From: Candidatus Micrarchaeota archaeon
GTDB taxonomy: Archaea; Micrarchaeota; Micrarchaeia; Micrarchaeales; Micrarchaeaceae
Length of the DNA: 51,098 bases
NCBI GenBank assembly: GCA_027345565.1
Contig: DAHWIF010000001.1
Span: 1-51,098 of the forward strand
Reading direction: 5' to 3'
Numbering within the stretch: the stretch's first letter is position 1; each line of letters starts with the position of its first letter. The notes under the pieces are model-generated. The model saw nothing but the letters and a program-made list of their open reading frames with translations, ran no database searches and had not been told where the DNA came from. Below, in pieces: positions 3,347-45,398 of this stretch. A program made the position numbers and the translations under genes.

Positions 3347-4822
3347 ATGAAGATAGAAGAACTGCTTGCGTATGCGAAGAGCAAGGGCTTCTTCTGGCCT
3401 AGCGCAGAGATATACGGCGGAGCGTCGGGCATATTCGACTACGGGCACGTGGGGGCGCTCCTGAAGAGGAGGTTCGAAAGCCTCTGGCTCTCCTACTTCG
3501 TTGACCAGAATGAGGGCTATCACCTGATAGAGGGATCCGAGATGCTCCCGGAGAAGCCGCTGATAGCGTCCGGCCACGCATCAAGGTTCAATGATGTGCT
3601 GGTAGGCTGCACCAAGTGCAAGACCTTCTTCAGGGCCGATGTGATACTCGCAGAGAAGAAGGTGGCGGTGTCAGAAGGAGCGTCACCGGAAGATATGGAC
3701 AAGCTGATAGAAAAGAGCGGGATAAGGTGCCCGAGATGCGGCGGCGACCTCGGAAAGTCGAAGTCGTTCAACATGATGATCGGAATAAGCCTCGGCCCGG
3801 AGAAGGCGGAGAGGGGCTACCTCAGGCCAGAGACCGCGCAATCCGCATACCTGAACTTCTTCCAGGAATTCAACGTCCTGAGGAAGGCGCTGCCGCTCGG
3901 ACTTGCGATAATAGGCAAAGCGTACAGGAACGAGATATCGCCAAGGCAGGGCCTTTTCAGGCTCAGAGAGCTGACGCAGGCCGAATTGCAGATATTCTTC
4001 GACCCAGAGACCTGGAAGCCGGGGGACGACGGGCTCTCAGAAAGGAAATTCATTGTGGTAACGTACAGCGACAAGAAGACGCAGCTGCTCAGCGCGCATG
4101 AGCTCGCCAAAAGGTACGGCATACCTGAATTCTATGCCTATCACATGGCGCTGATAGACAGGTTCTACACTGACGTGATGGGCGTCCCTAAGGAAAGGTT
4201 CAGGTTCCTTGAGAAGGGCGGCGATGAGAAGGCGTTCTACAACAAGGTCCATATGGACATCGAGGTAGATATAGAGAGCTGGGGAGGTTTCAGGGAGGTC
4301 GGAGGCCTGCACTACAGGACGGATTACGATTTAAGCTCCCACACAAAAGGATCCGGCAAGGACCTCTCAGTAAACATCGCCGGAAAAAGGATAATGCCGC
4401 ACGTGCTCGAGCTGAGTTTCGGAGTCGATAGGAACGTCTGGATGCTCCTGGATCTCTTCTACAAGAAGGACGCAGAGAGGAGCGTGCTGATGCTGCCGAA
4501 GCGGCTCGCCCCGTACCAGGCAGCGGTGTTCCAGCTGCAAAACGACGAGAAGCTCGACCAGACCGCGCAGAAAATATACGAGAGCCTGAAGCACAGGTTC
4601 AAGGTCGTTACCGACAGCTCCGGTTCTATAGGCAGGAGGTATGCGAGGATGGATGATATAGGAACCCCATACTGCATAACTGTAGATTTCAAGAGCACAG
4701 ACAAGGCTGACAAGGAGCACGGCACCGTCACGATAAGGAACCGGGACGACAGGTCGCAATCCAGGGTCAAGATAGACTCGCTTCAGGAGTTTTTTGAAAA
4801 GGCATACACGCACGGTGATTAG
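3347..4822 (+). CDS. glyS: Glycine--tRNA ligase (archaeal/eukaryal alpha2 type)
   Basis: YLRPETAQ, YRNEISPRQGLFRLRE, ELSFGVDR and the anticodon-binding domain SIGRRYARMDDIGTP. Confidence 0.96.
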   Translation: MKIEELLAYAKSKGFFWPSAEIYGGASGIFDYGHVGALLKRRFESLWLSYFVDQNEGYHLIEGSEMLPEKPLIASGHASRFNDVLVGCTKCKTFFRADVILAEKKVAVSEGASPEDMDKLIEKSGIRCPRCGGDLGKSKSFNMMIGISLGPEKAERGYLRPETAQSAYLNFFQEFNVLRKALPLGLAIIGKAYRNEISPRQGLFRLRELTQAELQIFFDPETWKPGDDGLSERKFIVVTYSDKKTQLLSAHELAKRYGIPEFYAYHMALIDRFYTDVMGVPKERFRFLEKGGDEKAFYNKVHMDIEVDIESWGGFREVGGLHYRTDYDLSSHTKGSGKDLSVNIAGKRIMPHVLELSFGVDRNVWMLLDLFYKKDAERSVLMLPKRLAPYQAAVFQLQNDEKLDQTAQKIYESLKHRFKVVTDSSGSIGRRYARMDDIGTPYCITVDFKSTDKADKEHGTVTIRNRDDRSQSRVKIDSLQEFFEKAYTHGD

Positions 4823-5689
4823 CTGCAGAGCCAGCCCAGCATACCAGTAACCACGTTCTCGCTCAGGCACACGTTCGAGAGCGCGCAGCCGCTGACGTTC
4901 TATGCGGACTTCAATAGGGTGAGCAACACACTCATATACCCGAAAGGAAGCTTCTTTATAAACGTGGTGCAGTCAGGCAGCGACGAGAAAGGGCGCTTGC
5001 ACGTGAGCGGAGTCCGCCCTAAAGATGGAGTGCGCGAGGTGAGGAGGAGATTCAGGCTCAGAGACGACATGGGCAGGATATATGAGAAGATACGCACAGA
5101 CACGTACATCGCAAGGGCGATAGATTCATATATGGGAATGAGGCTTACCCTCAACGACCCGTGGGAGACAACGCTCGTATTCATAATATCGCAGTTCAAC
5201 AACGTGAAGCGCATACGGCTTATAACACGGAACATAATCGGTAAGTACGGAAGTGAGATAGAGGGCCATGACGGGATAAAGGCGAGGAGCTTCCCAACAA
5301 GCGCAGATATGATGAAGGCTACCGAGAAGGAGCTCAAACGGCTTGGCGCAGGGTACCGCGCAAGGTATATAATCGGGGCGGCGGATTACTGCACAAACAA
5401 CGTAGACCTAGGCGAGCTGCCGGCCCACAAGTACTTGAAGCTGAAGGAGGAGCTGATGCAGATAGACGGAGTTGGTGAAAAGGTGGCCGATTGCATAGCC
5501 CTGATGGGCTACGGCAACCTGAAGGCATTCCCGATAGACGTGCACATAAAAAGGACCATGGAGAAACTCTACTTCGGGGGAAAGGCAAAGAGGATGCACG
5601 AGATACGTGAGTTTGCGGAGAGCAGGTGGGGTAACTACATGGGATACGCACAGCAGTACCTATTCCACAATGCGAGGATGATGGCATGA
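4823..5689 (+). CDS. 8-oxoguanine DNA glycosylase / HhH-GPD glycosylase (OGG1-like), inferred CTG start
   Basis: ISQFNNVKRI, GAGYRA and HhH GVGEKVADC...FPIDVH. The in-frame region upstream of GTG 4919 encodes FSLRHTFESAQPLTF (OGG N-domain-like) and begins at CTG 4823 after GGTGA + 4 nt. Confidence 0.85.
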   Translation: MQSQPSIPVTTFSLRHTFESAQPLTFYADFNRVSNTLIYPKGSFFINVVQSGSDEKGRLHVSGVRPKDGVREVRRRFRLRDDMGRIYEKIRTDTYIARAIDSYMGMRLTLNDPWETTLVFIISQFNNVKRIRLITRNIIGKYGSEIEGHDGIKARSFPTSADMMKATEKELKRLGAGYRARYIIGAADYCTNNVDLGELPAHKYLKLKEELMQIDGVGEKVADCIALMGYGNLKAFPIDVHIKRTMEKLYFGGKAKRMHEIREFAESRWGNYMGYAQQYLFHNARMMA

Positions 5690-6258
5690 AGGCACTTGAC
5701 GCTGACATAGAAAATATAGCTGGCGGGCTTACCAGGAAACAATCGGACTTCGATGTAGTGATGCAGCTTTCGAGGGAACTTATCCGTGATGCCGGCCAGA
5801 CGATCACTTTCATGCACAACAACGAGATAAAAAAAGCTGCAGAAAAGCTGCGCGCCATGGCATCAACGGTGAAGAGGCTGCAGAAGATAGACTCCAAGTT
5901 CAGGTACCATACGATGCAGGCGTATCAGGAGTATGCAGAGGCCAGGATCTTCGCTGACATAAAGACCAAACGAACGGTCACCCCGCTAAGCGGCGTGAGA
6001 GTCGATGGCGATGCATACTTGATGGGGCTGATGGATGTGGAGGGGGAGCTGAAAAGGGAGATATTGGAGTCCCTCAGGGCCGGCAGAGTGAAGGAAGCGG
6101 AATGGTACTTCGACACAATGAAGAGGATATACGACTCAACAAGGAAGCTAAGGTTCGCCGAGGCTGTCTTGCCCGGGTTCAGGAAGAAACAGGATACCGC
6201 GAGGATCCAGATAGAGAATGCGGGCAGCGAGATACTGATGTTCAAGAGAAGGCGCTAG
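5686..6258 (+). CDS. Translin/TRAX family protein
   Basis: QEYAEA and YLMGLMDVEGELKR motifs, C-terminal FRKKQDTAR. Confidence 0.85.
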   Translation: MKALDADIENIAGGLTRKQSDFDVVMQLSRELIRDAGQTITFMHNNEIKKAAEKLRAMASTVKRLQKIDSKFRYHTMQAYQEYAEARIFADIKTKRTVTPLSGVRVDGDAYLMGLMDVEGELKREILESLRAGRVKEAEWYFDTMKRIYDSTRKLRFAEAVLPGFRKKQDTARIQIENAGSEILMFKRRR

Positions 6259-6569
6259 CGCAGCCTGAGATACACTGACGATGCAGCCAGGTCTATGCTC
6301 TTGTTGACCGTGTCGGCATGGCTGCCGGACGCGGCGAGCTTGGCTATCCTGTTGTCCAGGCCCATCTCCTTTATCCTCGCAGCAACCATGGCTATCCTTT
6401 CTGAATAATCGCCATTGATATACTTGTTGACAGACGCCTGTGTTATCCCAAGCCTGTCTGCTATCTCCTGCTGCCCCATCTTGTACTTACGCTTGAGCAG
6501 CCTTGCCACAGCAACCCTCACCGCAGGTATCGCAGTCCTTATAATGCTGTCGCACTCAGATACCATCAC
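6255..6569 (-). CDS. Predicted HTH transcriptional regulator (archaeal XRE-like)
   Basis: IPAVRVAVARLL followed by HTH QQEIADRLGITQASVNKY. Confidence 0.8.
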   Translation of the reverse strand: MMVSECDSIIRTAIPAVRVAVARLLKRKYKMGQQEIADRLGITQASVNKYINGDYSERIAMVAARIKEMGLDNRIAKLAASGSHADTVNKSIDLAASSVYLRLR

Positions 6570-7213
6570 TCTACACCGAAAGTGTCCTTTAACGATCCGA
6601 ACAGACCTTTGCCCTTTTTGTTCTGCTGCGGTGGTTCCTGCACCTTCTTAGGCTTCTGCGCCTCACGTTCGGCCCTCTTTTGCAAGACTGGCGCTGGCTT
6701 CTCCTTAGGCGCAGGCGCGCCAGCTCCGAATACATTCTTTATCGAGCCGAACATTCCGCTGCCCTGCTGCTTCTGCGGCAGCGCAGCTTGCTGCACGGTC
6801 TTCTCCCCCTTCGGTTGGACATCCGCTATCTGCCTCTGCCTGCCCATGGCGTTTCCGAACGAGTCCTCTACGCTCTTGATTATGCCCCTCGTGTCCATCC
6901 TGTAGACTTTAGACGAATCGAGTATTATCACGTTGCTCTTCGCCTGCATGGCGGAAACCGCGTCATCGACGTCCTTGCACACTGCAGCGCGCACCCCGCT
7001 GACCTTGTTCGCCTCTATTACCGCATCCATAGGCTTCTTTGAAACAAGTATTGATACGTCATACCCTGAGATCGAGTCGCGTATGTCCTTTATCAGGATC
7101 CTGTAGTCGTCCGTGTCTTCGTCGCTCATTATGCAGGTGTTCCCGCTCCTGTTTATTATGTTGGCTAAGCGTATGCTCAGACCCTTGTCATCAGATGCCA
7201 AATATACCCGCAT
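6566..7213 (-). CDS. RpiB/LacAB-fold protein with degenerate active site and low-complexity C-terminal extension
   Basis: MRVYLASDD...IEANKVSGVRAAVC resembles RpiB, but the DH and CGTG catalytic motifs are absent. Start inferred at ATG 7213. Confidence 0.7.
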   Translation of the reverse strand: MRVYLASDDKGLSIRLANIINRSGNTCIMSDEDTDDYRILIKDIRDSISGYDVSILVSKKPMDAVIEANKVSGVRAAVCKDVDDAVSAMQAKSNVIILDSSKVYRMDTRGIIKSVEDSFGNAMGRQRQIADVQPKGEKTVQQAALPQKQQGSGMFGSIKNVFGAGAPAPKEKPAPVLQKRAEREAQKPKKVQEPPQQNKKGKGLFGSLKDTFGVE

Positions 7214-7290
7214 CGGATCCCCCATGCCGATAATAAATCTTGCTGACATGGTTATTAAGCTTTGTGATGGAATAAGGATAAGGTGATGAA

Positions 7291-7521
7291 CTGAGAGGAA
7301 GAGACACCCTCGTGGTTTGCGAATCGTGCGGCAGGAAGGTACCGAGAAACAAGGCTGTGATCGACGAAAAAGCGATACGCTTCAGCACCGAGCTGAAGAA
7401 TGCCAACGATGTAAGGTTCTTCGAGCGCAGGAAGGTGGTGTACTGCATAAGCTGCGCGAAGCACAGAGGAATATTCGAGAAGAAGAAGCGCCAGGCCATA
7501 GAACGGGCGAAAAGGTTCTGA
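7291..7521 (+). CDS. rps26e: 30S ribosomal protein S26e (eS26), inferred CTG start
   Basis: RGRDTLVVCESCGRKVPRNKA...YCISCAKHRGI zinc ribbon. The RGR N-terminus starts at CTG 7291 after GGTGA + 4 nt. Confidence 0.85.
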   Translation: MRGRDTLVVCESCGRKVPRNKAVIDEKAIRFSTELKNANDVRFFERRKVVYCISCAKHRGIFEKKKRQAIERAKRF

Positions 7522-7522
7522 A

Positions 7523-8338
7523 ATGGTGGAGAAGGAGGATCTGCTAATCTTCAGTATGCGCGAGGGAAGCGCAACGCAGCCGGCCGCTCAGCCGGCTGAG
7601 GCACAGCCGGTCATTGCGCAGCCGTCCAAGCCAGTGCCGCAAAAGAAGAAGGAGGAGAAAGGGCAGGAGCTGAAGGCGCAGAGTAGGCAGGCTGCCAAAG
7701 GGCTTTACTGTGAATGGCACCCGTGGAGGCCTGCGTATGCTGTGTGCTACACCTGCCACAAGCCCTTTTGCTACGAGGACATATCTGAATACAACAACAA
7801 GTACTACTGCCTTGAGGACATAGACTCTGCGGTTGCCAGGGAGAAGCCCCAGCTGACGTTCGCTTTCAACAAGGTGAGCATGCTGCCTGCAAGCCTCTTC
7901 CTGCTGACCATGTTGGTGTATATATACTTCGTCAACGCGGTCATCGCCTATATCGCGACTAACGCAGCCAGCGTCGGCATACAGGCATTCATAGCCAGCA
8001 ATTTCATACAGAGCGTGAACCTTAGCTATGTGATGCTCTTTGTCGGGTTAGCCATACTCGCATTCCTATTCGCAGGAGGACTCCTCATATTCGCGCAATC
8101 AAGGAAAGGATACTGGCTCAGCATATTCTCCGGCTCTATAGCTTTCATATTCTTCAGCTATGTCTACATAGCAAATTTCCAGGACTACGGCTTCATAATA
8201 GGCGCGCTGACGCTAGCCGGGCTGATAACCATGAGGTTTGCGGTCAATTCGCGCACCACAGAGGAGGAGCAGGCGGCAGGCGCCCCGCCTCTTCCAAGCA
8301 GCTTCAAGTACGGCGCCCAGTCCCAGCTGCGTTTCTGA
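7523..8338 (+). CDS. Membrane protein with N-terminal B-box-like zinc finger
   Basis: CEWHP...CYTCHKPFCYED...YYCLED followed by about 4 hydrophobic segments. Confidence 0.7.
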   Translation: MVEKEDLLIFSMREGSATQPAAQPAEAQPVIAQPSKPVPQKKKEEKGQELKAQSRQAAKGLYCEWHPWRPAYAVCYTCHKPFCYEDISEYNNKYYCLEDIDSAVAREKPQLTFAFNKVSMLPASLFLLTMLVYIYFVNAVIAYIATNAASVGIQAFIASNFIQSVNLSYVMLFVGLAILAFLFAGGLLIFAQSRKGYWLSIFSGSIAFIFFSYVYIANFQDYGFIIGALTLAGLITMRFAVNSRTTEEEQAAGAPPLPSSFKYGAQSQLRF

Positions 8339-8962
8339 TCAGCCGGCCATCAGCGTGCGCGCCTGGTACCTTCCCCTCTTCTCTATCTCGGCAAGCCGCC
8401 CCATTATCTCGCCGCTGGATCCGCAGCTCTTCCTGTAACCGGCAAGGAACCTCCTGAAAAGGCCCGGGCGCACAGACCTTTTCATAAGAAGCAGGTCCAA
8501 AGCCTTCTCCTCTGTTGACTTCGTGCTCTCAGCAAGTCCGAAGTCTATTATCCAAATCCTATCTGCATTATCAAGCATGAGGTTCGCAGGAGTATAGTCA
8601 CCGTGCGCTATGCCGATGTTGTGCAGCATCCCGCAGCATACTCCCGCATCGTGCATTGCCCTGCCAAGCCTAGCGCTGCCGATCCTGGCAAGCCCCATTG
8701 TGAATTCGTGCAGGCTCCTGCCGCGTATCCTCCCCATGCATATGCTTGTGCGTTCGACCAGCAGCACGTTCGGGACGTTCATGCCGTGCGACGAGGCCGC
8801 ATAAAGCAGCCGAGCTTCGCTTTTTGTGCGTTGGCGCCTGAGCCTATCGTCAAGCTGCTTTATCCTGTAGCTCTTCGCTATCCTTTCCTTGACTATCGCA
8901 TCTATCCCAAGGAACTCCGTCTCATAAATCCTCGCTTCAGCGCCTTCAGATATGAGTCTCAG
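8339..8962 (-). CDS. bud32: KEOPS kinase Bud32, inferred CTG start
   Basis: HGDYTPAN, IDFGL, C-terminal RGRY. The in-frame upstream sequence encodes RLISEGAEARIY...KERIAKSYR...RTKSEAR starting at CTG 8962. Confidence 0.92.
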   Translation of the reverse strand: MRLISEGAEARIYETEFLGIDAIVKERIAKSYRIKQLDDRLRRQRTKSEARLLYAASSHGMNVPNVLLVERTSICMGRIRGRSLHEFTMGLARIGSARLGRAMHDAGVCCGMLHNIGIAHGDYTPANLMLDNADRIWIIDFGLAESTKSTEEKALDLLLMKRSVRPGLFRRFLAGYRKSCGSSGEIMGRLAEIEKRGRYQARTLMAG

Positions 8963-8966
8963 ACGA

Positions 8967-9944
8967 TCACCACGTCACCTTGACCGTGTCAACGCGGTAC
9001 CTCTGATTTATGCCTAGCTGCTCTGCGCTGTAGCGCTGCCCGCTTCTGTACATCTTCTCCGCCACTACGGCAATCATCGCGCCATTATCCGCATTCAGCT
9101 CATTCGGCGAGACGAAGAATCCCGCACCGTGGCATTTCGCTACAATTCCGAGCATCTCCTTCAGCCTCTTGCTCTGCGCAACGCCACCGCAAACCATCAG
9201 CTCCCTCTTCTTTGCAAGGAGGAGCGCGCGCTCGGTAGCCTCGCAGAGCATCGCAAACGATGTTTCCTGCAACGAATATGCGGTATCCTTGACCGAGTGG
9301 CTTTTCAGCGCCTTCTCGGCAAAGGTCTGCAGCCCTGTGAAGGTGAAGTCCATGCCCTTTACAGTGTACGGCATCTCAAAGTACCTGCCGCCATCTGCAA
9401 CCTTGGCAACAGTGGAGCCCCATGCAGGGACAAGGCGTGCAGCGCGCGCAAAGCTGTCTATCATGTTTCCGATTCCTATATCGAATGTTTCGCCGTAAAC
9501 GTGGTAGTGTCTGAACGGGCTGTCTACGAGGCCCAATATCTGGGAGTTGCCTCCGCTGACATAGAGAACAAGCGGATCCCTCAGCCTGAACGCCTGCTTC
9601 GTAACCTCTATGTGGCCCAGCGCGTGGTTGACCGGCATGAGCGGCAGTTTGTATCTCTTTGAGATAAGCGCCGCAACAAGCTGGCCTACCGCAAGGCATG
9701 GCCCAAGCCCTGGCCCCTTGGTATACCCTACGGCTTCCACATCGCGCGGTTTTATTCCAGCCTCGTCCAGAGCGCGCTTTACCACCAAATGGGCATTCCT
9801 CATGTGGAATCCGGCGACCTTTACGGGTATCATGCCCCTCTCTTTTATCGGGTACATGCTCTTCTGGTTGGCGAGTATCCTGCCGTTGTCGCAGATGCCG
9901 ACTCCAAATGTGTGCGCTGTACTCTCAATTCCAAGCACGGCCAT
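8967..9944 (-). CDS. kae1: tRNA t6A synthase Kae1
   Basis: VLGIESTAH, GPGLGPCL, VNHALGHIE, LYVSGGNSQ and DNGAMIA. Start at ATG 9944. Confidence 0.95.
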   Translation of the reverse strand: MAVLGIESTAHTFGVGICDNGRILANQKSMYPIKERGMIPVKVAGFHMRNAHLVVKRALDEAGIKPRDVEAVGYTKGPGLGPCLAVGQLVAALISKRYKLPLMPVNHALGHIEVTKQAFRLRDPLVLYVSGGNSQILGLVDSPFRHYHVYGETFDIGIGNMIDSFARAARLVPAWGSTVAKVADGGRYFEMPYTVKGMDFTFTGLQTFAEKALKSHSVKDTAYSLQETSFAMLCEATERALLLAKKRELMVCGGVAQSKRLKEMLGIVAKCHGAGFFVSPNELNADNGAMIAVVAEKMYRSGQRYSAEQLGINQRYRVDTVKVTW

Positions 9945-9992
9945 AAAGGATCGGTTAAAATGACTCAAAACAGGAATAAAAGGCTTTATGGC

Positions 9993-10298
9993 TCAGATGA
10001 CATCTATTATGTCCTCCTTGTAGCCCATCCCGATCAGCGCCTTCTTCGTCGTGTCCTTGTGGTCGCCCTGCAGCTCAACTACGCCGTCCCTGCTCGTCCC
10101 GCCGCAGGCTAGTATCCTCTTGAGGTTCTTCTCCGCGCTCTCGAGCTCGTCGTTGTTTATGCCCTCTATGACGGTCACTACGCGGTTGAACTTCGCCTTC
10201 TTTGTATAGACCCGTATTTTGCTCTCCGTCTCGCGGTCAAGTACGGAGCATACGCAGATGTCTTTGGGTAATCCGCATTTTGGACATACGTCTGGCAT
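9993..10298 (-). CDS. sui1: Translation initiation factor aIF1 (SUI1)
   Basis: N-terminal CPKCGLPKDICVC zinc knuckle, LACGGT and ELQGDH. Confidence 0.95.
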   Translation of the reverse strand: MPDVCPKCGLPKDICVCSVLDRETESKIRVYTKKAKFNRVVTVIEGINNDELESAEKNLKRILACGGTSRDGVVELQGDHKDTTKKALIGMGYKEDIIDVI

Positions 10299-10694: not shown

Positions 10695-12635
10695 ATGCAG
10701 AGCTTCAAGACGACCGCAGAAGTCAAGGTTCCAGAGAAGCTAATCGATCAGGTAATCGGGCAGGAGAAAGCCACAGATATAATCAAGAAGGCGGCAAAAC
10801 AGCGAAGGAACGTGCTGCTGGTCGGATCGCCAGGTACTGGAAAAACGATGCTAGCCCAAGCGATGGCAGAGCTGCTGCCTGCCGCAGAGCTCGAGGACAT
10901 ACTTGTCTACAAGAATGTCAACGACGAGAACATGCCGCTCATCAAGGCAGTTAAGACATACCCTAACGAGGAAGCGAGGGCTAAGGGCGGCGACGGCCAG
11001 GGCAGGCAGATACTGCAGAAAGAGCGGATGAAGAACAGGATGATGATGGGGAAGGGCGCATCGCTCGTAACTCCGATAATACTCCTCCTCGTCATAGTCC
11101 TATTCGGGCTCTCGCTGAGCGGCTACATAACGGGATACGAGATAATAGTGCTTGCCGCACTCATCCTCGGGATACTGATATTCGGGGCAATGATGATGTT
11201 CATGAGCGGGGTCACCCGCCGCGCAGGCATACTGGGCACAACAGACTACAACGAGCCTAAGCTTATAGTTGATAACACAGGATACAAGCATGCGCCTTTC
11301 ATAGACGCTACTGGCTCTAGGGCCGGCGCGCTTTTCGGCGACGTCAGGCACGACCCCCTGCAGAGCGGCGGGCTCGGCACCCCGGCGCACCTTAGGGTTG
11401 AGAGCGGTGCGGTGCATAAAGCCAACAAGGGAGTCCTTTTCATAGATGAGGTATCAAGGCTTGAACCGAGGTCGCAGCAGGACCTTCTAACGTCAATGCA
11501 GGAGAAGAAATACGCGATAACAGGGCAAAGCGAGATGAGCTCAGGCGCACTCGTCAAGACCGAACCGGTGCCTGCCGACTTCGTCCTGGTGGCTGCAGGC
11601 AACCTGCAGGACATACAGGCGATGCACCCAGCGTTGCGGTCAAGGATACGCGGATACGGCTACGAGGTTTATATGGAGTCGACCATGGAGGACAACGATG
11701 CCAATCGCACAATGCTCGTCCAGTTCATCGCGCAGGAGGTGAAGAAGGACGGCAAGATACCGCATTTCGGCAAGGATGCCGTCGGCGAGGTGCTTGAGGA
11801 GGCGCGCAGGCGCGCAGGCAGGAAGAAAAGACTTACTCTCATACTCAGGGACCTCGGCGGATTGGTGAGGGCTGCAGGGGACCTCGCCGTGGAGCGGAAG
11901 CAGAAGGTGGTGACCAAGCAGGATGTGATAGATGCTAAGAAACTTGCCAGCTCTATAGAGTCCCAGGCAGTTACCCAGGAGATAGAATATACGAAGGACT
12001 ATCAGGTCTTCACCAACCGCGGGTTCAGCGTTGGCAAGGTGAATGGCCTGGCTGTGATGGGCTCATCGTCCATAACATCAGCAGGCCTAGTGCTGCCGCT
12101 TGTCGCTGAGGTCACTCCGGCAAGCTCCAGGGCGGAAGGCAAGTTTATACCCACCGGCAAGCTCGGGAAGATAGCGAACGAGGCAGTGAAGAACGTTAGC
12201 GCGATAATAAAGAAGCATATCGGCAAGGACGTCGCCAACTACGACATGCACGTGCAGTTTCTGCAGTCGTACGCAGGCGTTGAGGGAGACAGTGCAAGCA
12301 TATCGGTAGCTATAAGCATAATCTCTGCAATGGAAAACCTGCCTGTCGACCAATCGGTCGCAATGACCGGATCCCTCTCTGTAAGGGGGGAGGTGCTGCC
12401 CGTAGGCGGAGTTACCAGCAAGATAGAGGCGGCGATAAGCGCAGGCATGCGCACGGTAATAATACCGCAGAGCAACCGTGATGACGTCTACATAGCGAAG
12501 GAGAGACTGCGTAGGATAAAGGTTGTGCCTGTGAAAACCCTGGCTGAAGTAATGAAATACTCGATAAAGCCAAGCAAACGCAAGGACGAGATAATAATGG
12601 AGCTCAGGAAGCACGAGCTGCCGAACGGAAAGTGA
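10695..12635 (+). CDS. lonB: Membrane-bound ATP-dependent protease LonB
   Basis: DQVIGQE, Walker A GSPGTGKT, two TM helices inside the AAA module, [12 protein letters not shown], and Ser-Lys dyad GDSAS...GGVTSK. Confidence 0.96.
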
Positions 12636-12639
12636 GAGA

Positions 12640-13746
12640 GTGAGCGAGCGCAAAGATGCGGATGCGAAGAAGAAGCTCGAGCTTTTCGGGAAGGAGATAC
12701 TCGAAGAGGTGGAGAATGGCAAGAGCCCGACCTTTACCACGCTCTCTAGGTCGAGGTCCAACGTGAAGTACGACGAGAAGGCCGGGGTGCTCATGCTAGG
12801 CAAGAATTCCGAGGAGCGCAACTTCGTGAACGTCGCCCAGGCAAAACGATTTATGCAGACGGTCGCGATAGCTTCCAAGTGTTATAAGTTCATCAACGAG
12901 AACCTGCACACATCAATAAGGGGGCTATTTTATCAGCTTAAGTACTCGCTTGGGGAGGACGTCGACGAGAACATATTTAACGAGCAGGCCGAATCGAACC
13001 CGCTCATAGAGGACCTTGAGGTGTCCCTCGGCGTAAAGAGGGAGGACCTCAACCTTAACGCGAACAGGAAGGGCGTGCTGGCAGGAAACCTGAAGATACA
13101 CGACACGTTCGGCGGGGAGCGCCAGCTGATAGACGCGGCAAAGCAGGGGAGGAGCGGATGGGCGATACCGAGCGATGTGGACAATGAGATAGAGTTCACC
13201 GACGTGCGGGCTAAGTACGTGCTTGTCGTTGAGAAGGACGCCATCTGGCAGAGGCTAAACGAGGACGGCTTCTGGAAGAAGGAGAACTGCATACTCATAT
13301 CGCCGCAGGGGCAGGCCGCAAGGGGCACGCGGCGCCTCATAAGAAAGCTCGCCGACATGGGCCTTCCGATCTATGTCTTCAACGACTGCGACGCCTGGGG
13401 GTGGTACATATACTGGACGATAAAGACCGGAAGCATAAACCTCGCCTACATGGGCAGGGAGATAGCGACGCCAGAGGCAAGGTTCCTCGGCGTGACTATG
13501 GAAGATATAGAGCGCTACGACTTCCTCAAGAAAATGACAATGAAGGCATCAGAGGTTGACATAAAGAGGGCGCAGGACATGCTGCAGTATCCATGGATAA
13601 ACAGGCACAAGGAGTGGGTAGAAGAGCTCAACAAGGTCATAAAGACAAAGACGAAGCTCGAGCAGGACACGCTGCAAGGGCCGAAGCTGACGTTTGTAGG
13701 GGACTACATACGCGGGAAGATAGCGGCGAAGCGTTTCCTCCCCTGA
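12640..13746 (+). CDS. top6A: DNA topoisomerase VI subunit A
   Basis: SIRGLFY catalytic Tyr, FNEQAESN, TOPRIM VVEKDA and DCDAWG. Confidence 0.93.
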   Translation: MSERKDADAKKKLELFGKEILEEVENGKSPTFTTLSRSRSNVKYDEKAGVLMLGKNSEERNFVNVAQAKRFMQTVAIASKCYKFINENLHTSIRGLFYQLKYSLGEDVDENIFNEQAESNPLIEDLEVSLGVKREDLNLNANRKGVLAGNLKIHDTFGGERQLIDAAKQGRSGWAIPSDVDNEIEFTDVRAKYVLVVEKDAIWQRLNEDGFWKKENCILISPQGQAARGTRRLIRKLADMGLPIYVFNDCDAWGWYIYWTIKTGSINLAYMGREIATPEARFLGVTMEDIERYDFLKKMTMKASEVDIKRAQDMLQYPWINRHKEWVEELNKVIKTKTKLEQDTLQGPKLTFVGDYIRGKIAAKRFLP

Positions 13747-15063
13747 TTATACCTCTATGGCTGCGTGCATGTTAGATAGGCCAAGCTTGTTCAGCGTAGT
13801 CTGCGGATCGTCATAATATGCCCTAACGGTCTCGTTTATGCTCCTTATATCCTTCACGCCCTGCTTGTTCATAGCTGCGAGTATGCTGCCCCTGACCCGC
13901 TCCTCTTCGTATATGTCCTGCGGTGCAACGCCAATGAGCCTCGCCAGCGAATCCCTGTACGTTACGCTGGGCAGTATCGGCGAAGCCTGGTGTGTCTTGT
14001 AATCGTATTTGTACAGGTCTGAGAGCAGCACCTTCGTCTCTATTCCGGATACCTCCGATACCTGAACTATCTTCCTCAGCGGCTTCTTGTTTTCTATCAC
14101 ATGGGAGACTATCACTACCGCGTCTATCGCAGGTATGAGCTCCATCGGCACGTCCATGGGCTTGCTCTGCAGCCTTGTTATTACATCCCTTGCTGTTGAC
14201 GCGTGGATCGTGCCGAGCACTATCTTGCCTATGTTCATCGCTGTCATCATATCCTTAGCTTCAGCGCCGCGCACCTCCCCTATTATTATTGTATCAGGCC
14301 TCATCCTCACAGAGTTCTTCACGAGCTCGACCATCGGCAGGTCGTCGCTGGTCTCCAGCCTTACGCAGTTCTCCTGCGTCTCGGTGTTGAGCTCGTATGT
14401 CTCCTCTATCGTCACCACCCTTGCTTCCGGCCTGAAGAACGAGAACAGCGCATTCAGCAGCGTCGTCTTCCCGGCTGCAGGCATGCCCCCTACCAGCAGG
14501 TTGGCCGGCCTCACCCTGAAGCCGTCGACATAGACCCACAGCCTGGCCGCCATCTGATAGTCGAGCTCTCCCAAGTTCACCAGGTCTATGATGCTCAGGG
14601 CGCGCTTCCTAAAGTTCCTTATAGTCACATCGTAGCCGATCGGCGATGTGACTATGTTGCATCTGCTCCCTGTGGGCAGGTGCACGTCTATTACGTTGCC
14701 GTTCGCTGACTCGTTCGTGGAGTACAGTTTTATCTTGTCTATGAAGAGATCCAGCTTCTCCCTTGTCTCGAAGCGCGCATCTATCTTCGCTAGGCCGCCG
14801 CTCGCATCGTACACATATACATTTCTGGTGTTGTTGATCATCACGTCCTCTATGCTCTCATTAGTGAGATAGTCCTCTATGGGTGATAGGTCATTTATGT
14901 CGTTTATAATCTCCTTTAGCTCATCCGCAGAGAGTTCCGGGCTTATTGTCTTCGCGTGGTATATTATCAGGTCGGTTTTCTTCTTCTGGTCGTCTATCCC
15001 GGCGAAAGCTCCGACAAGCCTCTTGAGCACCTTCCTTTCAATATCATAAGTCGAACTTTTCAT
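13747..15063 (-). CDS. Type II/IV secretion (CpaF/VirB11/FlaI-like) ATPase
   Basis: Walker A GMPAAGKTT, Asp box TIEETYEL, RMRPDTIIIGEVRG and His box GTIHA. Confidence 0.9.
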   Translation of the reverse strand: MKSSTYDIERKVLKRLVGAFAGIDDQKKKTDLIIYHAKTISPELSADELKEIINDINDLSPIEDYLTNESIEDVMINNTRNVYVYDASGGLAKIDARFETREKLDLFIDKIKLYSTNESANGNVIDVHLPTGSRCNIVTSPIGYDVTIRNFRKRALSIIDLVNLGELDYQMAARLWVYVDGFRVRPANLLVGGMPAAGKTTLLNALFSFFRPEARVVTIEETYELNTETQENCVRLETSDDLPMVELVKNSVRMRPDTIIIGEVRGAEAKDMMTAMNIGKIVLGTIHASTARDVITRLQSKPMDVPMELIPAIDAVVIVSHVIENKKPLRKIVQVSEVSGIETKVLLSDLYKYDYKTHQASPILPSVTYRDSLARLIGVAPQDIYEEERVRGSILAAMNKQGVKDIRSINETVRAYYDDPQTTLNKLGLSNMHAAIEV

Positions 15064-33098: not shown

Positions 33099-33496
33099 TG
33101 GTAGTAAGGAAGCAGAAGCGCAACCGCAAGTACCTCGGCACAAGGCGCTGGGGGGTAGGCAACATAAAGAATGCGAGAGGCGCTGGCGACCGCGGCGGCG
33201 TCGGCAGGGCGGGAAGCAGGAAGCACAAGTTCACCTACATGACATCAAAGGGCAGGGAGCAGATGCACAAGCGCGGCTTCCACCCGTGGGGCCTGAAGAG
33301 GCTGGAGGAGATCAACCTAATGCAGATAAGCGGCATGGTCAAGGAGAAAGGCGGCGCGGAGATAGAGCTGCGCAATTGCAAGGTGCTGAGCAACGGTACG
33401 CTGAGCGCGCCAATAAAGATAAAGGCCGCTGGGTTTTCTAAGGCAGCCGTGGAGAAGATAAAGGCTGCGGGCGGGGAAGCTATAGTAATAGATTGA
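33098..33496 (+). CDS. rpl15p: 50S ribosomal protein L15
   Basis: RGAGDRGGVGRAG, KVLSNG and FSKAAVEKIKAAGG, with GGTGA + 4 nt + ATG. Confidence 0.95.
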   Translation: MVVRKQKRNRKYLGTRRWGVGNIKNARGAGDRGGVGRAGSRKHKFTYMTSKGREQMHKRGFHPWGLKRLEEINLMQISGMVKEKGGAEIELRNCKVLSNGTLSAPIKIKAAGFSKAAVEKIKAAGGEAIVID

Positions 33497-41220: not shown

Positions 41221-41280
41221 CCTGCTCTGCGTATGCTCTATGCTGCCCGGCAGATCATCACTTGTGCGATGTAATCAACA

Positions 41281-44786: not shown

Positions 44787-45398
44787 TTGGTCAAGCTCTT
44801 CATCTTCGACGTGGGCAGTGTGATCACCACAGGGTCGCGATACGCAGAGATCAACGCCCGCATCTCGAAGGTGTTCAAGGTCGACAAAAGCGAGATCCAC
44901 AGGTCCCTTGCGCCGCTTTACGATGCTGCGCAGAATGGAAGGATGAGCTCATCAGTATTCTGGAAAAGGTTTGCGGAAGGGCTGGGCGTAGATTCGCCGA
45001 AACGCCTCAGGGCCGAGTACACAAAGGTCTTCATGGACCGTCCGCCGAGCAGCGGCATCAACCCTGGCGTCCGCAAGGTAATAAAGCTGCTAAAGAGGAG
45101 GGGGTATAAGGTCGTGGCTCTGTCAAACACCGTGATGACCAACGAACCGCTCCACCGCGAGCTCGGCCACTACAAGCATCTCGATAGGGTATTCCTCTCG
45201 CATAGGATAAAGGCCGCAAAGCCTGACAAGCGTGCGTTCTTGCATGTGCTAAAAACAATGAAAATCACGCCCAAAGACGCGGTATTCATAGATGACCAAG
45301 CAGCGAACGTAGGTTCCGCACGTCGGCTCGGAATCCATGCAATACTTTTCAAAAATACGGGGCAGCTGAAAAAGGAGCTGCGCCGGTACCTAGCTTAA
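44787..45398 (+). CDS. HAD family phosphatase (YihX-like)
   Basis: FIFDVGSV, ALSNT, KPD and VFIDD. Confidence 0.88.
   Translation: MVKLFIFDVGSVITTGSRYAEINARISKVFKVDKSEIHRSLAPLYDAAQNGRMSSSVFWKRFAEGLGVDSPKRLRAEYTKVFMDRPPSSGINPGVRKVIKLLKRRGYKVVALSNTVMTNEPLHRELGHYKHLDRVFLSHRIKAAKPDKRAFLHVLKTMKITPKDAVFIDDQAANVGSARRLGIHAILFKNTGQLKKELRRYLA

Follow-up and report, generated by a model that had tools for sequence, protein, structure and literature searches.

Probable CTG start codons behind a full Shine-Dalgarno sequence in conserved genes of a Micrarchaeota genome

Three conserved genes of a Candidatus Micrarchaeota archaeon, ogg, rps26e and bud32, probably start with CTG, as judged from comparison with related genomes. 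All three lie on a stretch of 51,098 nucleotides (GenBank assembly GCA_027345565.1, contig DAHWIF010000001.1), here called the window, in which each CTG stands at a fixed distance behind the Shine-Dalgarno (SD) sequence GGTGAT. The most probable explanation is that about 1% of the genes of this organism use near-cognate initiation compensated by the SD, together with a lively turnover of start codons within its genus. The class is made up of several near-cognate codons behind the strongest SD and is not a special CUG system. Here ATG, GTG and TTG are referred to as canonical starts, and a near-cognate codon is one with a single mismatch to ATG outside GTG and TTG. The evidence consists of the anatomy of the sites, the start codons aligned with the CTGs in relatives, the coding character of the leaders, the link to the full SD and the repeated switching of codons.

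The genome that holds the window, G000, is metagenome-assembled and comprises 600,410 bases in 16 contigs, of which the window is contig C10; the run records give a mine drainage metagenome as the source. It is rated 84% complete and holds roughly 600 genes. Gene identities were taken from Pfam and NCBIfam profile searches. Each of the three proteins was searched against 40 relatives (numbered in the same way as G000), and the DNA was read at the aligned N termini, giving 20 loci for bud32, 25 for ogg and 25 for rps26e.

The three CTG sites and their orthologues

At each site GGTGAT is followed by three nucleotides and CTG, which is the same as GGTGA, four nucleotides and CTG, and an in-frame stop is situated zero to four codons upstream of the CTG. 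Sequence and translations both agree with the first-pass annotation, which had described the pattern GGTGA-NNNN-CTG bounded by an in-frame stop at 4823, 7291 and, on the minus strand, 8962. In ogg, on the plus strand, the SD (4814-4819) is complementary to AUCACC in the 3' end of the 16S rRNA. The upstream gene in the list of open reading frames (ORFs) encodes a class II aminoacyl-tRNA synthetase (3347-4822, plus strand; Pfam tRNA-synt_2b and HGTP_anticodon), and its stop codon TAG, at 4820-4822, is in frame with ogg and directly adjoins the CTG at 4823. The gene runs from there to 5689, a length of 288 codons, and the first canonical codon, GTG 4919, falls 32 codons past the CTG. The product belongs to the 8-oxoguanine DNA glycosylase family and matches HhH-GPD, OGG_N and TIGR00588.

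The rps26e gene (7291-7521, plus strand) encodes an S26e-like ribosomal protein and has 76 codons counted from CTG 7291. The order of elements is TAA (7279-7281), GGTGAT (7282-7287), GAA and CTG, and no canonical codon comes before GTG 7312, only 7 codons past the CTG. Its S26e profile matches are below the curated cut-offs, with 25.5 against 27 for Pfam and 31.9 against 118 for NCBIfam. An S26e-like protein is present in 41 of the 41 genomes of the order, and its TTG start is nearly order-wide. The protein eS26 is described as a TACK/Asgard protein in PMC11698992. In most genus members a conserved AT-rich box, ggttattaagctttgtgat, is found about 30 nt before the rps26e start (window 7250-7281). 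This box is probably a promoter, which would imply a very short leader with the SD alone.

The bud32 gene, coding for the KEOPS kinase, lies on the minus strand at 8339-8962 and has 207 codons from CTG 8962. Read on that strand, the site consists of TGA (8977-8975), CGT, GGT, GAT, CGT and CTG (8962-8960). The SD at 8966-8971 contains the stop codon of the upstream kae1 gene, TGA 8969-8967, in another frame. The first canonical codon is ATG 8782, which is 60 codons past the CTG.

The first-pass annotation had suggested aligning orthologues, and the codon opposite each CTG proves to be a start codon in the relatives, whether TTG, ATG, GTG or CTG again. For bud32, the site reads GGTGAT-CGG-TTG in G003, the closest relative (82% identity), and GGTGAT-TGT-ATT in G002, while G004, G001, G007, G011 and most others have ATG. 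For ogg, CTG directly after the upstream stop is also found in G003, G007 and G002, and G011 has GGTGAT-TAA-TTG; in the remaining loci ATG or TTG is nearby. The codon aligned with the rps26e CTG is TTG at 19 of the 25 loci, CTG at four (G000, G003, G001 and G005), GTG at one and ATG at one. Since the TTG comes straight after an in-frame stop in three genomes (loci L059, L061 and L062), the aligned column is the start. CTG is kept between species whose proteins are 58-97% identical.

The stop codon ahead of ogg differs among species, being TAG, TAA or TGA, and a synthetase-Ogg fusion by stop readthrough or frameshifting was rejected on this ground. A Kae1-Bud32 fusion of the bifunctional PRK09605 type was also rejected, since the two ORFs do not share a frame and kae1 has a stop of its own. 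In G010 the ogg orthologue (G010:C1:304014-304790, locus L036) has an in-frame TGA that splits the match in two, and this may be a broken gene.

To assess the leaders, the substitutions between G000 and G003 were counted by codon position in the stretch ahead of the first canonical codon. Counts at positions 1/2/3 were 6/3/20 for bud32 and 2/1/11 for ogg, mostly at the third position, and the leaders of both genes evolve as coding sequence. This whole-leader test misses genes whose leader includes promoter DNA. Profile matches extend over the same stretches. Bud32 matches TIGR03724 (arch_bud32) with 179 bits against a cut-off of 125, its residues 7-200 covering profile positions 1-193. Ogg matches TIGR00588 over residues 7-285, the first of these falling on profile position 10, and OGG_N over residues 8-116. 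Starting at the first canonical codon would remove 54 of the 193 profile positions from Bud32, including the GAEA loop, and about 25 from Ogg.

The first-pass annotation had also predicted that standard gene callers would truncate such genes. Callers did truncate them, because forms starting at the first ATG were found as exact sequences in public protein collections for four of the five genes looked up: bud32 (147 residues) and three genes described below, those for an IPP isomerase (320), GrpE (143) and an RNHCP protein (89).

Near-cognate starts across the genome and the genus

A plain genome-wide tally of codons after GGTGA is swamped by motifs inside genes, and later tallies were limited to the 5' ends of ORFs. 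ATG after GGTGA peaks at a spacing of 4, with 17 occurrences genome-wide vs 5, 4 and 5 at spacings 5-7; GGAGG gave no ATG peak at any spacing in G000. Exactly RGTGA and four nucleotides precede seven canonical starts in the window, at 1714, 12640 and 33098 on the plus strand and at 33226, 21310, 20691 and 17917 on the minus strand. The first-pass annotation had pointed to this spacing at canonical starts and had included translin (5686) and a start at 44787, where the motifs, GATGA and TGTGA, are RGTGA-like only.

In the restricted tally, the codon at GGTGAT+3 was recorded for ORFs with a stop no more than 8 codons upstream and an open stretch of 60 codons or longer, and other spacings in the same frame served as the control. 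In G000, the 17 codons at GGTGAT+3 comprise 3 ATG, 3 CTG, 1 ATT, 1 ATC, 1 ACG and 8 others, whereas the 59 at control spacings comprise 3 near-cognate codons, 1 canonical codon and 55 others (Fisher p=0.0012; p=0.0004 for GGTGA+4). CTG itself occurs at 3 of 17 positions as opposed to 1 of 59. G001 gave a comparable result (p=0.003): its 12 codons at this position include no ATG, 4 GTG or TTG and 6 near-cognate codons. After the partial motifs GTGA or GGTG, CTG was found at background level (13/1656, compared with 0.85% overall).

Near-cognate starts were also sought with a screen that is blind to the SD. ORFs were flagged when conservation relative to G001 or G010 extended 6 or more codons beyond the first canonical start in the 5' direction, the start of the tblastn alignment being taken as the N-terminal boundary. 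A tblastn comparison of all ORFs with G003 was dropped, as that genome is too close and non-coding flanks align too. The screen flagged 85 ORFs, which were read by eye. Most of the flags were artefacts arising from neighbouring genes in another frame or on the opposite strand, from tRNA and rRNA genes or from AT-rich promoter boxes, and six were judged credible: bud32, ogg and the genes for GrpE (ATT), an RNHCP zinc-ribbon protein (ATC), a CAP-domain membrane protein (ACG) and a type 2 IPP isomerase (ATA). All six credible near-cognate starts have NGTGA at spacing 4, vs 8 of 34 conserved canonical starts (p=0.0008), and five of the six have the full GGTGAT, vs 1 of 34 (p=5e-5). With rps26e, this makes about 7 near-cognate genes out of roughly 600, or about 1%.

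Three of the additional genes are found on the minus strand of contig C14 (locus L209). The type 2 IPP isomerase gene (12952-14001) has its ATA behind AGTGAG, grpE (11235-11744) has ATT behind GGTGAT, and the gene of the CAP-domain membrane protein (275-1345) has ACG behind GGTGAT. The RNHCP gene is on the plus strand of contig C16 (locus L210, 1652-1993), with ATC behind GGTGAT. The ATT, ATC and ACG codons are kept across species, some of them straight after an in-frame stop, as in GGTGAT-TAG-ATC of G001 and GGTGGT-TGA-ACG of G003. Profile matches again begin close to the proposed starts in two of these proteins: position 1 of TIGR02151 (330 bits) is at residue 9 of the ATA-started isomerase, and the match of the ATT-started protein to the GrpE profile (positions 5-165) starts from residue 3. 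The RNHCP profile begins at residue 20, and the first ATG of that gene falls inside the first CxxC.

Two further CTG candidates were rejected. At window position 41253 on the minus strand, AGTGAT-GAT-CTG precedes a gene for an MFS transporter, but an ATG 11 codons downstream aligns with the start in G001, and the 11 codons after the CTG change non-synonymously between G000 and G003. For GGTGAT-AGG-CTG-ATG at position 7888 of contig C1, the adjoining ATG is the likelier start. A carbamoyltransferase gene possibly has a near-cognate start, which is ACG in G000 and G003, where a GTG comes two codons further on, and CTG in G001. On the minus strand of contig C15, a stretch of about 40 codons ahead of a GGTGAT-AAG-ATG start (ORF at reverse-strand offset 29983) is 87% conserved in comparison with G001, though G001 has a stop there; a conserved RNA or a regulatory element could account for it.

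A tree of 24 genomes, computed from the Ogg, Bud32 and S26e proteins after removal of the N-terminal columns, was used to follow the start codons. It joins G000 and G003 as sisters (100/100), and their clade also takes in G004 and G008, which both have TTG. Scored as CTG or not CTG, the tree needs at least three independent changes, gains or losses of CTG, for rps26e and at least three for ogg. Near-cognate starts occur in 4 of 13 genomes of the genus for rps26e, 4 of 13 for ogg and 2 of 10 for bud32, and outside the genus canonical starts alone were found (12 of 12, 12 of 12 and 10 of 10 loci, respectively). Between the two sisters, ogg and rps26e have CTG in both, and bud32 has TTG in G003. 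Further switches are seen in genes of G001 and G010; among them, G001 has CTG opposite TTG or GTG, ATA opposite GTG or TTG, and CTG opposite the ACG of G000 and G003.

The 3' end of the G000 16S rRNA is GATCACCTCGT, and GGUGAU pairs with its AUCACC. It is not CCTCC-like. The 16S gene (C15:4894-7251, locus L208) measures 2358 nt against a model of 1478 positions, with about 880 nt inserted, possibly as an intron. The initiator tRNA, with the anticodon CAU, shows the A1-U72 pair and three G-C pairs in its anticodon stem. Its gene (C4:73011-73098) contains a 12-nt intron that ARAGORN places at 39/40, not at the usual 37/38; an elongator tRNA-Met was not found in G000, which is 84% complete. The factor aIF1 is encoded at 9993-10298 on the minus strand (Pfam SUI1, 50.8 bits; solved aIF1 structure 4mo0 of the Protein Data Bank, 1.7e-27), upstream of kae1/TsaD (8967-9968, minus strand; ORF list; Pfam TsaD, 198 bits), which in turn lies upstream of bud32. 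It aligns end to end with solved archaeal aIF1, and the differences between five genus sequences and three full sequences from three outgroup genera are conservative (Y/F, R/K).

The first-pass annotation had placed aIF1 in the apparent operon of bud32 and had called for its comparison, and that of the initiator tRNA, with canonical archaea. The position of the gene, on the same strand as kae1-bud32, fits the operon. Both components look ordinary next to solved aIF1, the outgroups and the canonical features of initiator tRNAs, and because of this nothing in the comparison ties the nearby aIF1 gene to the near-cognate starts.

In the mechanism that we propose, the small subunit would be docked by a 6-bp duplex between GGUGAU of the mRNA and AUCACC at the 16S rRNA 3' end. 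This docking would set the P site on the codon three nucleotides downstream, and the ordinary initiator Met-tRNA, with its CAU anticodon, would be accepted there on a codon with one mismatch. The same arrangement would serve the ATT of grpE, the ATC of the RNHCP gene, the ACG of the CAP-domain protein gene and the ATA of the type 2 IPP isomerase gene. We infer that initiator Met-tRNA reads the near-cognate codons, that the proteins begin with methionine, that the strong SD makes up kinetically for the weak codon and that expression stays below that from ATG. A tentative extension, which we regard as possible rather than probable, is a start-codon gate that is loosened across the genus, where the full GGUGAU duplex would let CUG, AUU, AUC, AUA and ACG pass about as well as UUG and the codons would drift near-neutrally among themselves. 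If true, this would amount to a lineage-specific change of fidelity in the archaeal, eukaryote-like initiation machinery of a reduced genome.

Points against near-cognate initiation and alternative explanations

Several points weigh against near-cognate initiation. The case for it is drawn from sequence comparison, and the choice of six ORFs out of 85 was manual and possibly coloured by sight of the SD. The enrichment at GGTGAT+3 is not significant in G003 (p=0.11) or G010 (p=0.16) taken alone, and the compared genomes are relatives, so that the Fisher tests treat them as more independent than they are. No near-cognate enrichment was seen at the ORF 5' ends of G000 when the SD was loosened to GGTG at spacing 5 (p=0.33). 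The first-pass annotation had expected a genome-wide enrichment of CTG; CTG is in excess behind the full GGTGAT and at background behind GTGA or GGTG.

A strict test considered genes whose first canonical start occupies the same column in two divergent sister genomes. For the 45 informative genes, the start column in G000 holds 34 canonical codons, 11 others, which are probably misprojections, and neither CTG nor any other near-cognate codon. This column test is insensitive, as bud32, ogg and rps26e themselves fell outside its criteria. The suggestion that CUG is a routine start codon in this lineage did not survive these counts, with no CTG in the 45 strict columns and a total of only three CTG starts over the 600 kb of the genome. 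These three all lie inside 4.2 kb, a clustering that near-cognate initiation behind the SD leaves unaccounted for and that may partly be an effect of how the window was chosen.

It is very unlikely that translation instead starts at the downstream canonical codons, GTG 4919, GTG 7312 and ATG 8782, with the conserved upstream stretches as untranslated leaders. Gene callers gave such starts, including the public 147-residue Bud32 from ATG 8782, and the rps26e GTG is so close to the CTG that it could serve in G000 and G003. Such starts are at odds with the third-position bias and the profile coverage of the leaders and with the loss that a truncated Bud32 would suffer. In addition, no SD-like motif precedes any of the three codons, the rps26e gene of G001 has CTG without a downstream GTG, and ogg has no nearby canonical codon in G007 and G002. 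Termination-reinitiation coupling, in which a ribosome terminating upstream restarts on the adjoining codon and the identity of that codon matters little, is unlikely as well. The layout of ogg, where the CTG adjoins the synthetase stop, would suit it, as would the stop-adjacent arrangement in G003, G007, G002 and G011 and the bud32 CTG 4 nt past the kae1 stop. Against coupling, rps26e has no upstream gene on its strand (the neighbour at 6566-7249 is on the minus strand) and has the conserved AT-rich box about 30 nt upstream, the RNHCP gene comes after a tRNA gene, and the codons at these sites are one-mismatch codons alone, not arbitrary ones. Coupling may add to SD-led initiation at ogg and bud32 rather than replace it.

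Loss of start codons by drift, leaving the genes dying or silent, would be conceivable in a small genome of a probably host-dependent lineage, and the G010 ogg with its in-frame TGA points that way. It is nevertheless highly improbable for bud32 and a ribosomal protein gene, which are core genes with intact ORFs under purifying selection, and for sites at which CTG is kept across species of 58-97% protein identity behind a perfectly conserved SD. We give almost no credence to an assembly or consensus error, or to an mRNA edited from C to U so that UUG is restored. CTG and TTG are one transition apart and the genome is metagenome-assembled, which would be compatible with either. However, CTG recurs at these sites in independent genomes from other species, and another assembly made from the likely source run agrees at every letter of 4823, 7291 and 8960-8962. 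The only change reported on the main contigs of that assembly is at 8379, and the assembly does not count as independent data. An RNA run of the same study left the window uncovered, a result that carries no information on expression. Editing would leave the ATT, ATC, ACG and ATA starts unexplained.

Implications and comparison with known systems

Callers limited to ATG, GTG and TTG shorten core proteins of these small-genome archaea by 25-60 residues. Lost in this way are the nucleotide-binding loop of Bud32, the N-domain of Ogg, the N terminus of the IPP isomerase, a membrane anchor and, in the RNHCP protein, the first zinc-knuckle cysteine. Such truncation can mislead the assignment of functions and pathways as well as counts of pseudogenes. 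The genes described here would also provide a comparative case in which archaeal initiation tolerates CUG, AUU, AUC, ACG and AUA as main starts when the SD is perfect, and how SD strength trades off against start-codon strength becomes testable in archaea. A literature search, with supplements outside its reach, returned no paper on near-cognate or CUG main starts in DPANN or other small-genome archaea.

NCBI translation table 11 lists CTG, ATT, ATC and ATA as starts, and the present case is a fresh instance of known near-cognate initiation. It resembles the near-cognate starts of E. coli (AUU of infC and pcnB, and rarely annotated CTG, ATT, ATC and ATA) in having a one-mismatch codon behind an SD and the initiator tRNA. 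For E. coli, two confirmed non-canonical starts are reported, and AUA, AUC, AUU and CUG initiate at 1-2% of the level of AUG (bioRxiv 10.1101/063800). Unlike E. coli, the organism is an archaeon with eukaryote-type aIF1 and aIF2, about 7 of its roughly 600 genes would be involved as against two confirmed cases, ACG is used too, and repeated switches of the start codon are seen between the species of a single genus.

With the SD-led initiation at AUG, GUG and UUG that is usual in archaea, the sites share an SD complementary to the 16S 3' end and the spacing, alongside an aIF1 and an initiator tRNA that look ordinary; they differ in that the main start of conserved genes would lie outside these three codons. 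According to PMC6237735, aIF1 disfavours non-AUG complexes. In ribosome profiling of Haloferax volcanii, about 30% of the putative alternative sites were near-cognate and were set aside as possible false positives (PMC7261190). Unlike those alternative or internal sites, the codons described here are the sole plausible starts of conserved genes and were recognized by comparative genomics, not by profiling. In eukaryotes, CUG is reported to be read by Met-tRNAi (PMC4705826). The machinery there is related, but the start codon would be selected here by SD pairing and not by scanning with a Kozak context.

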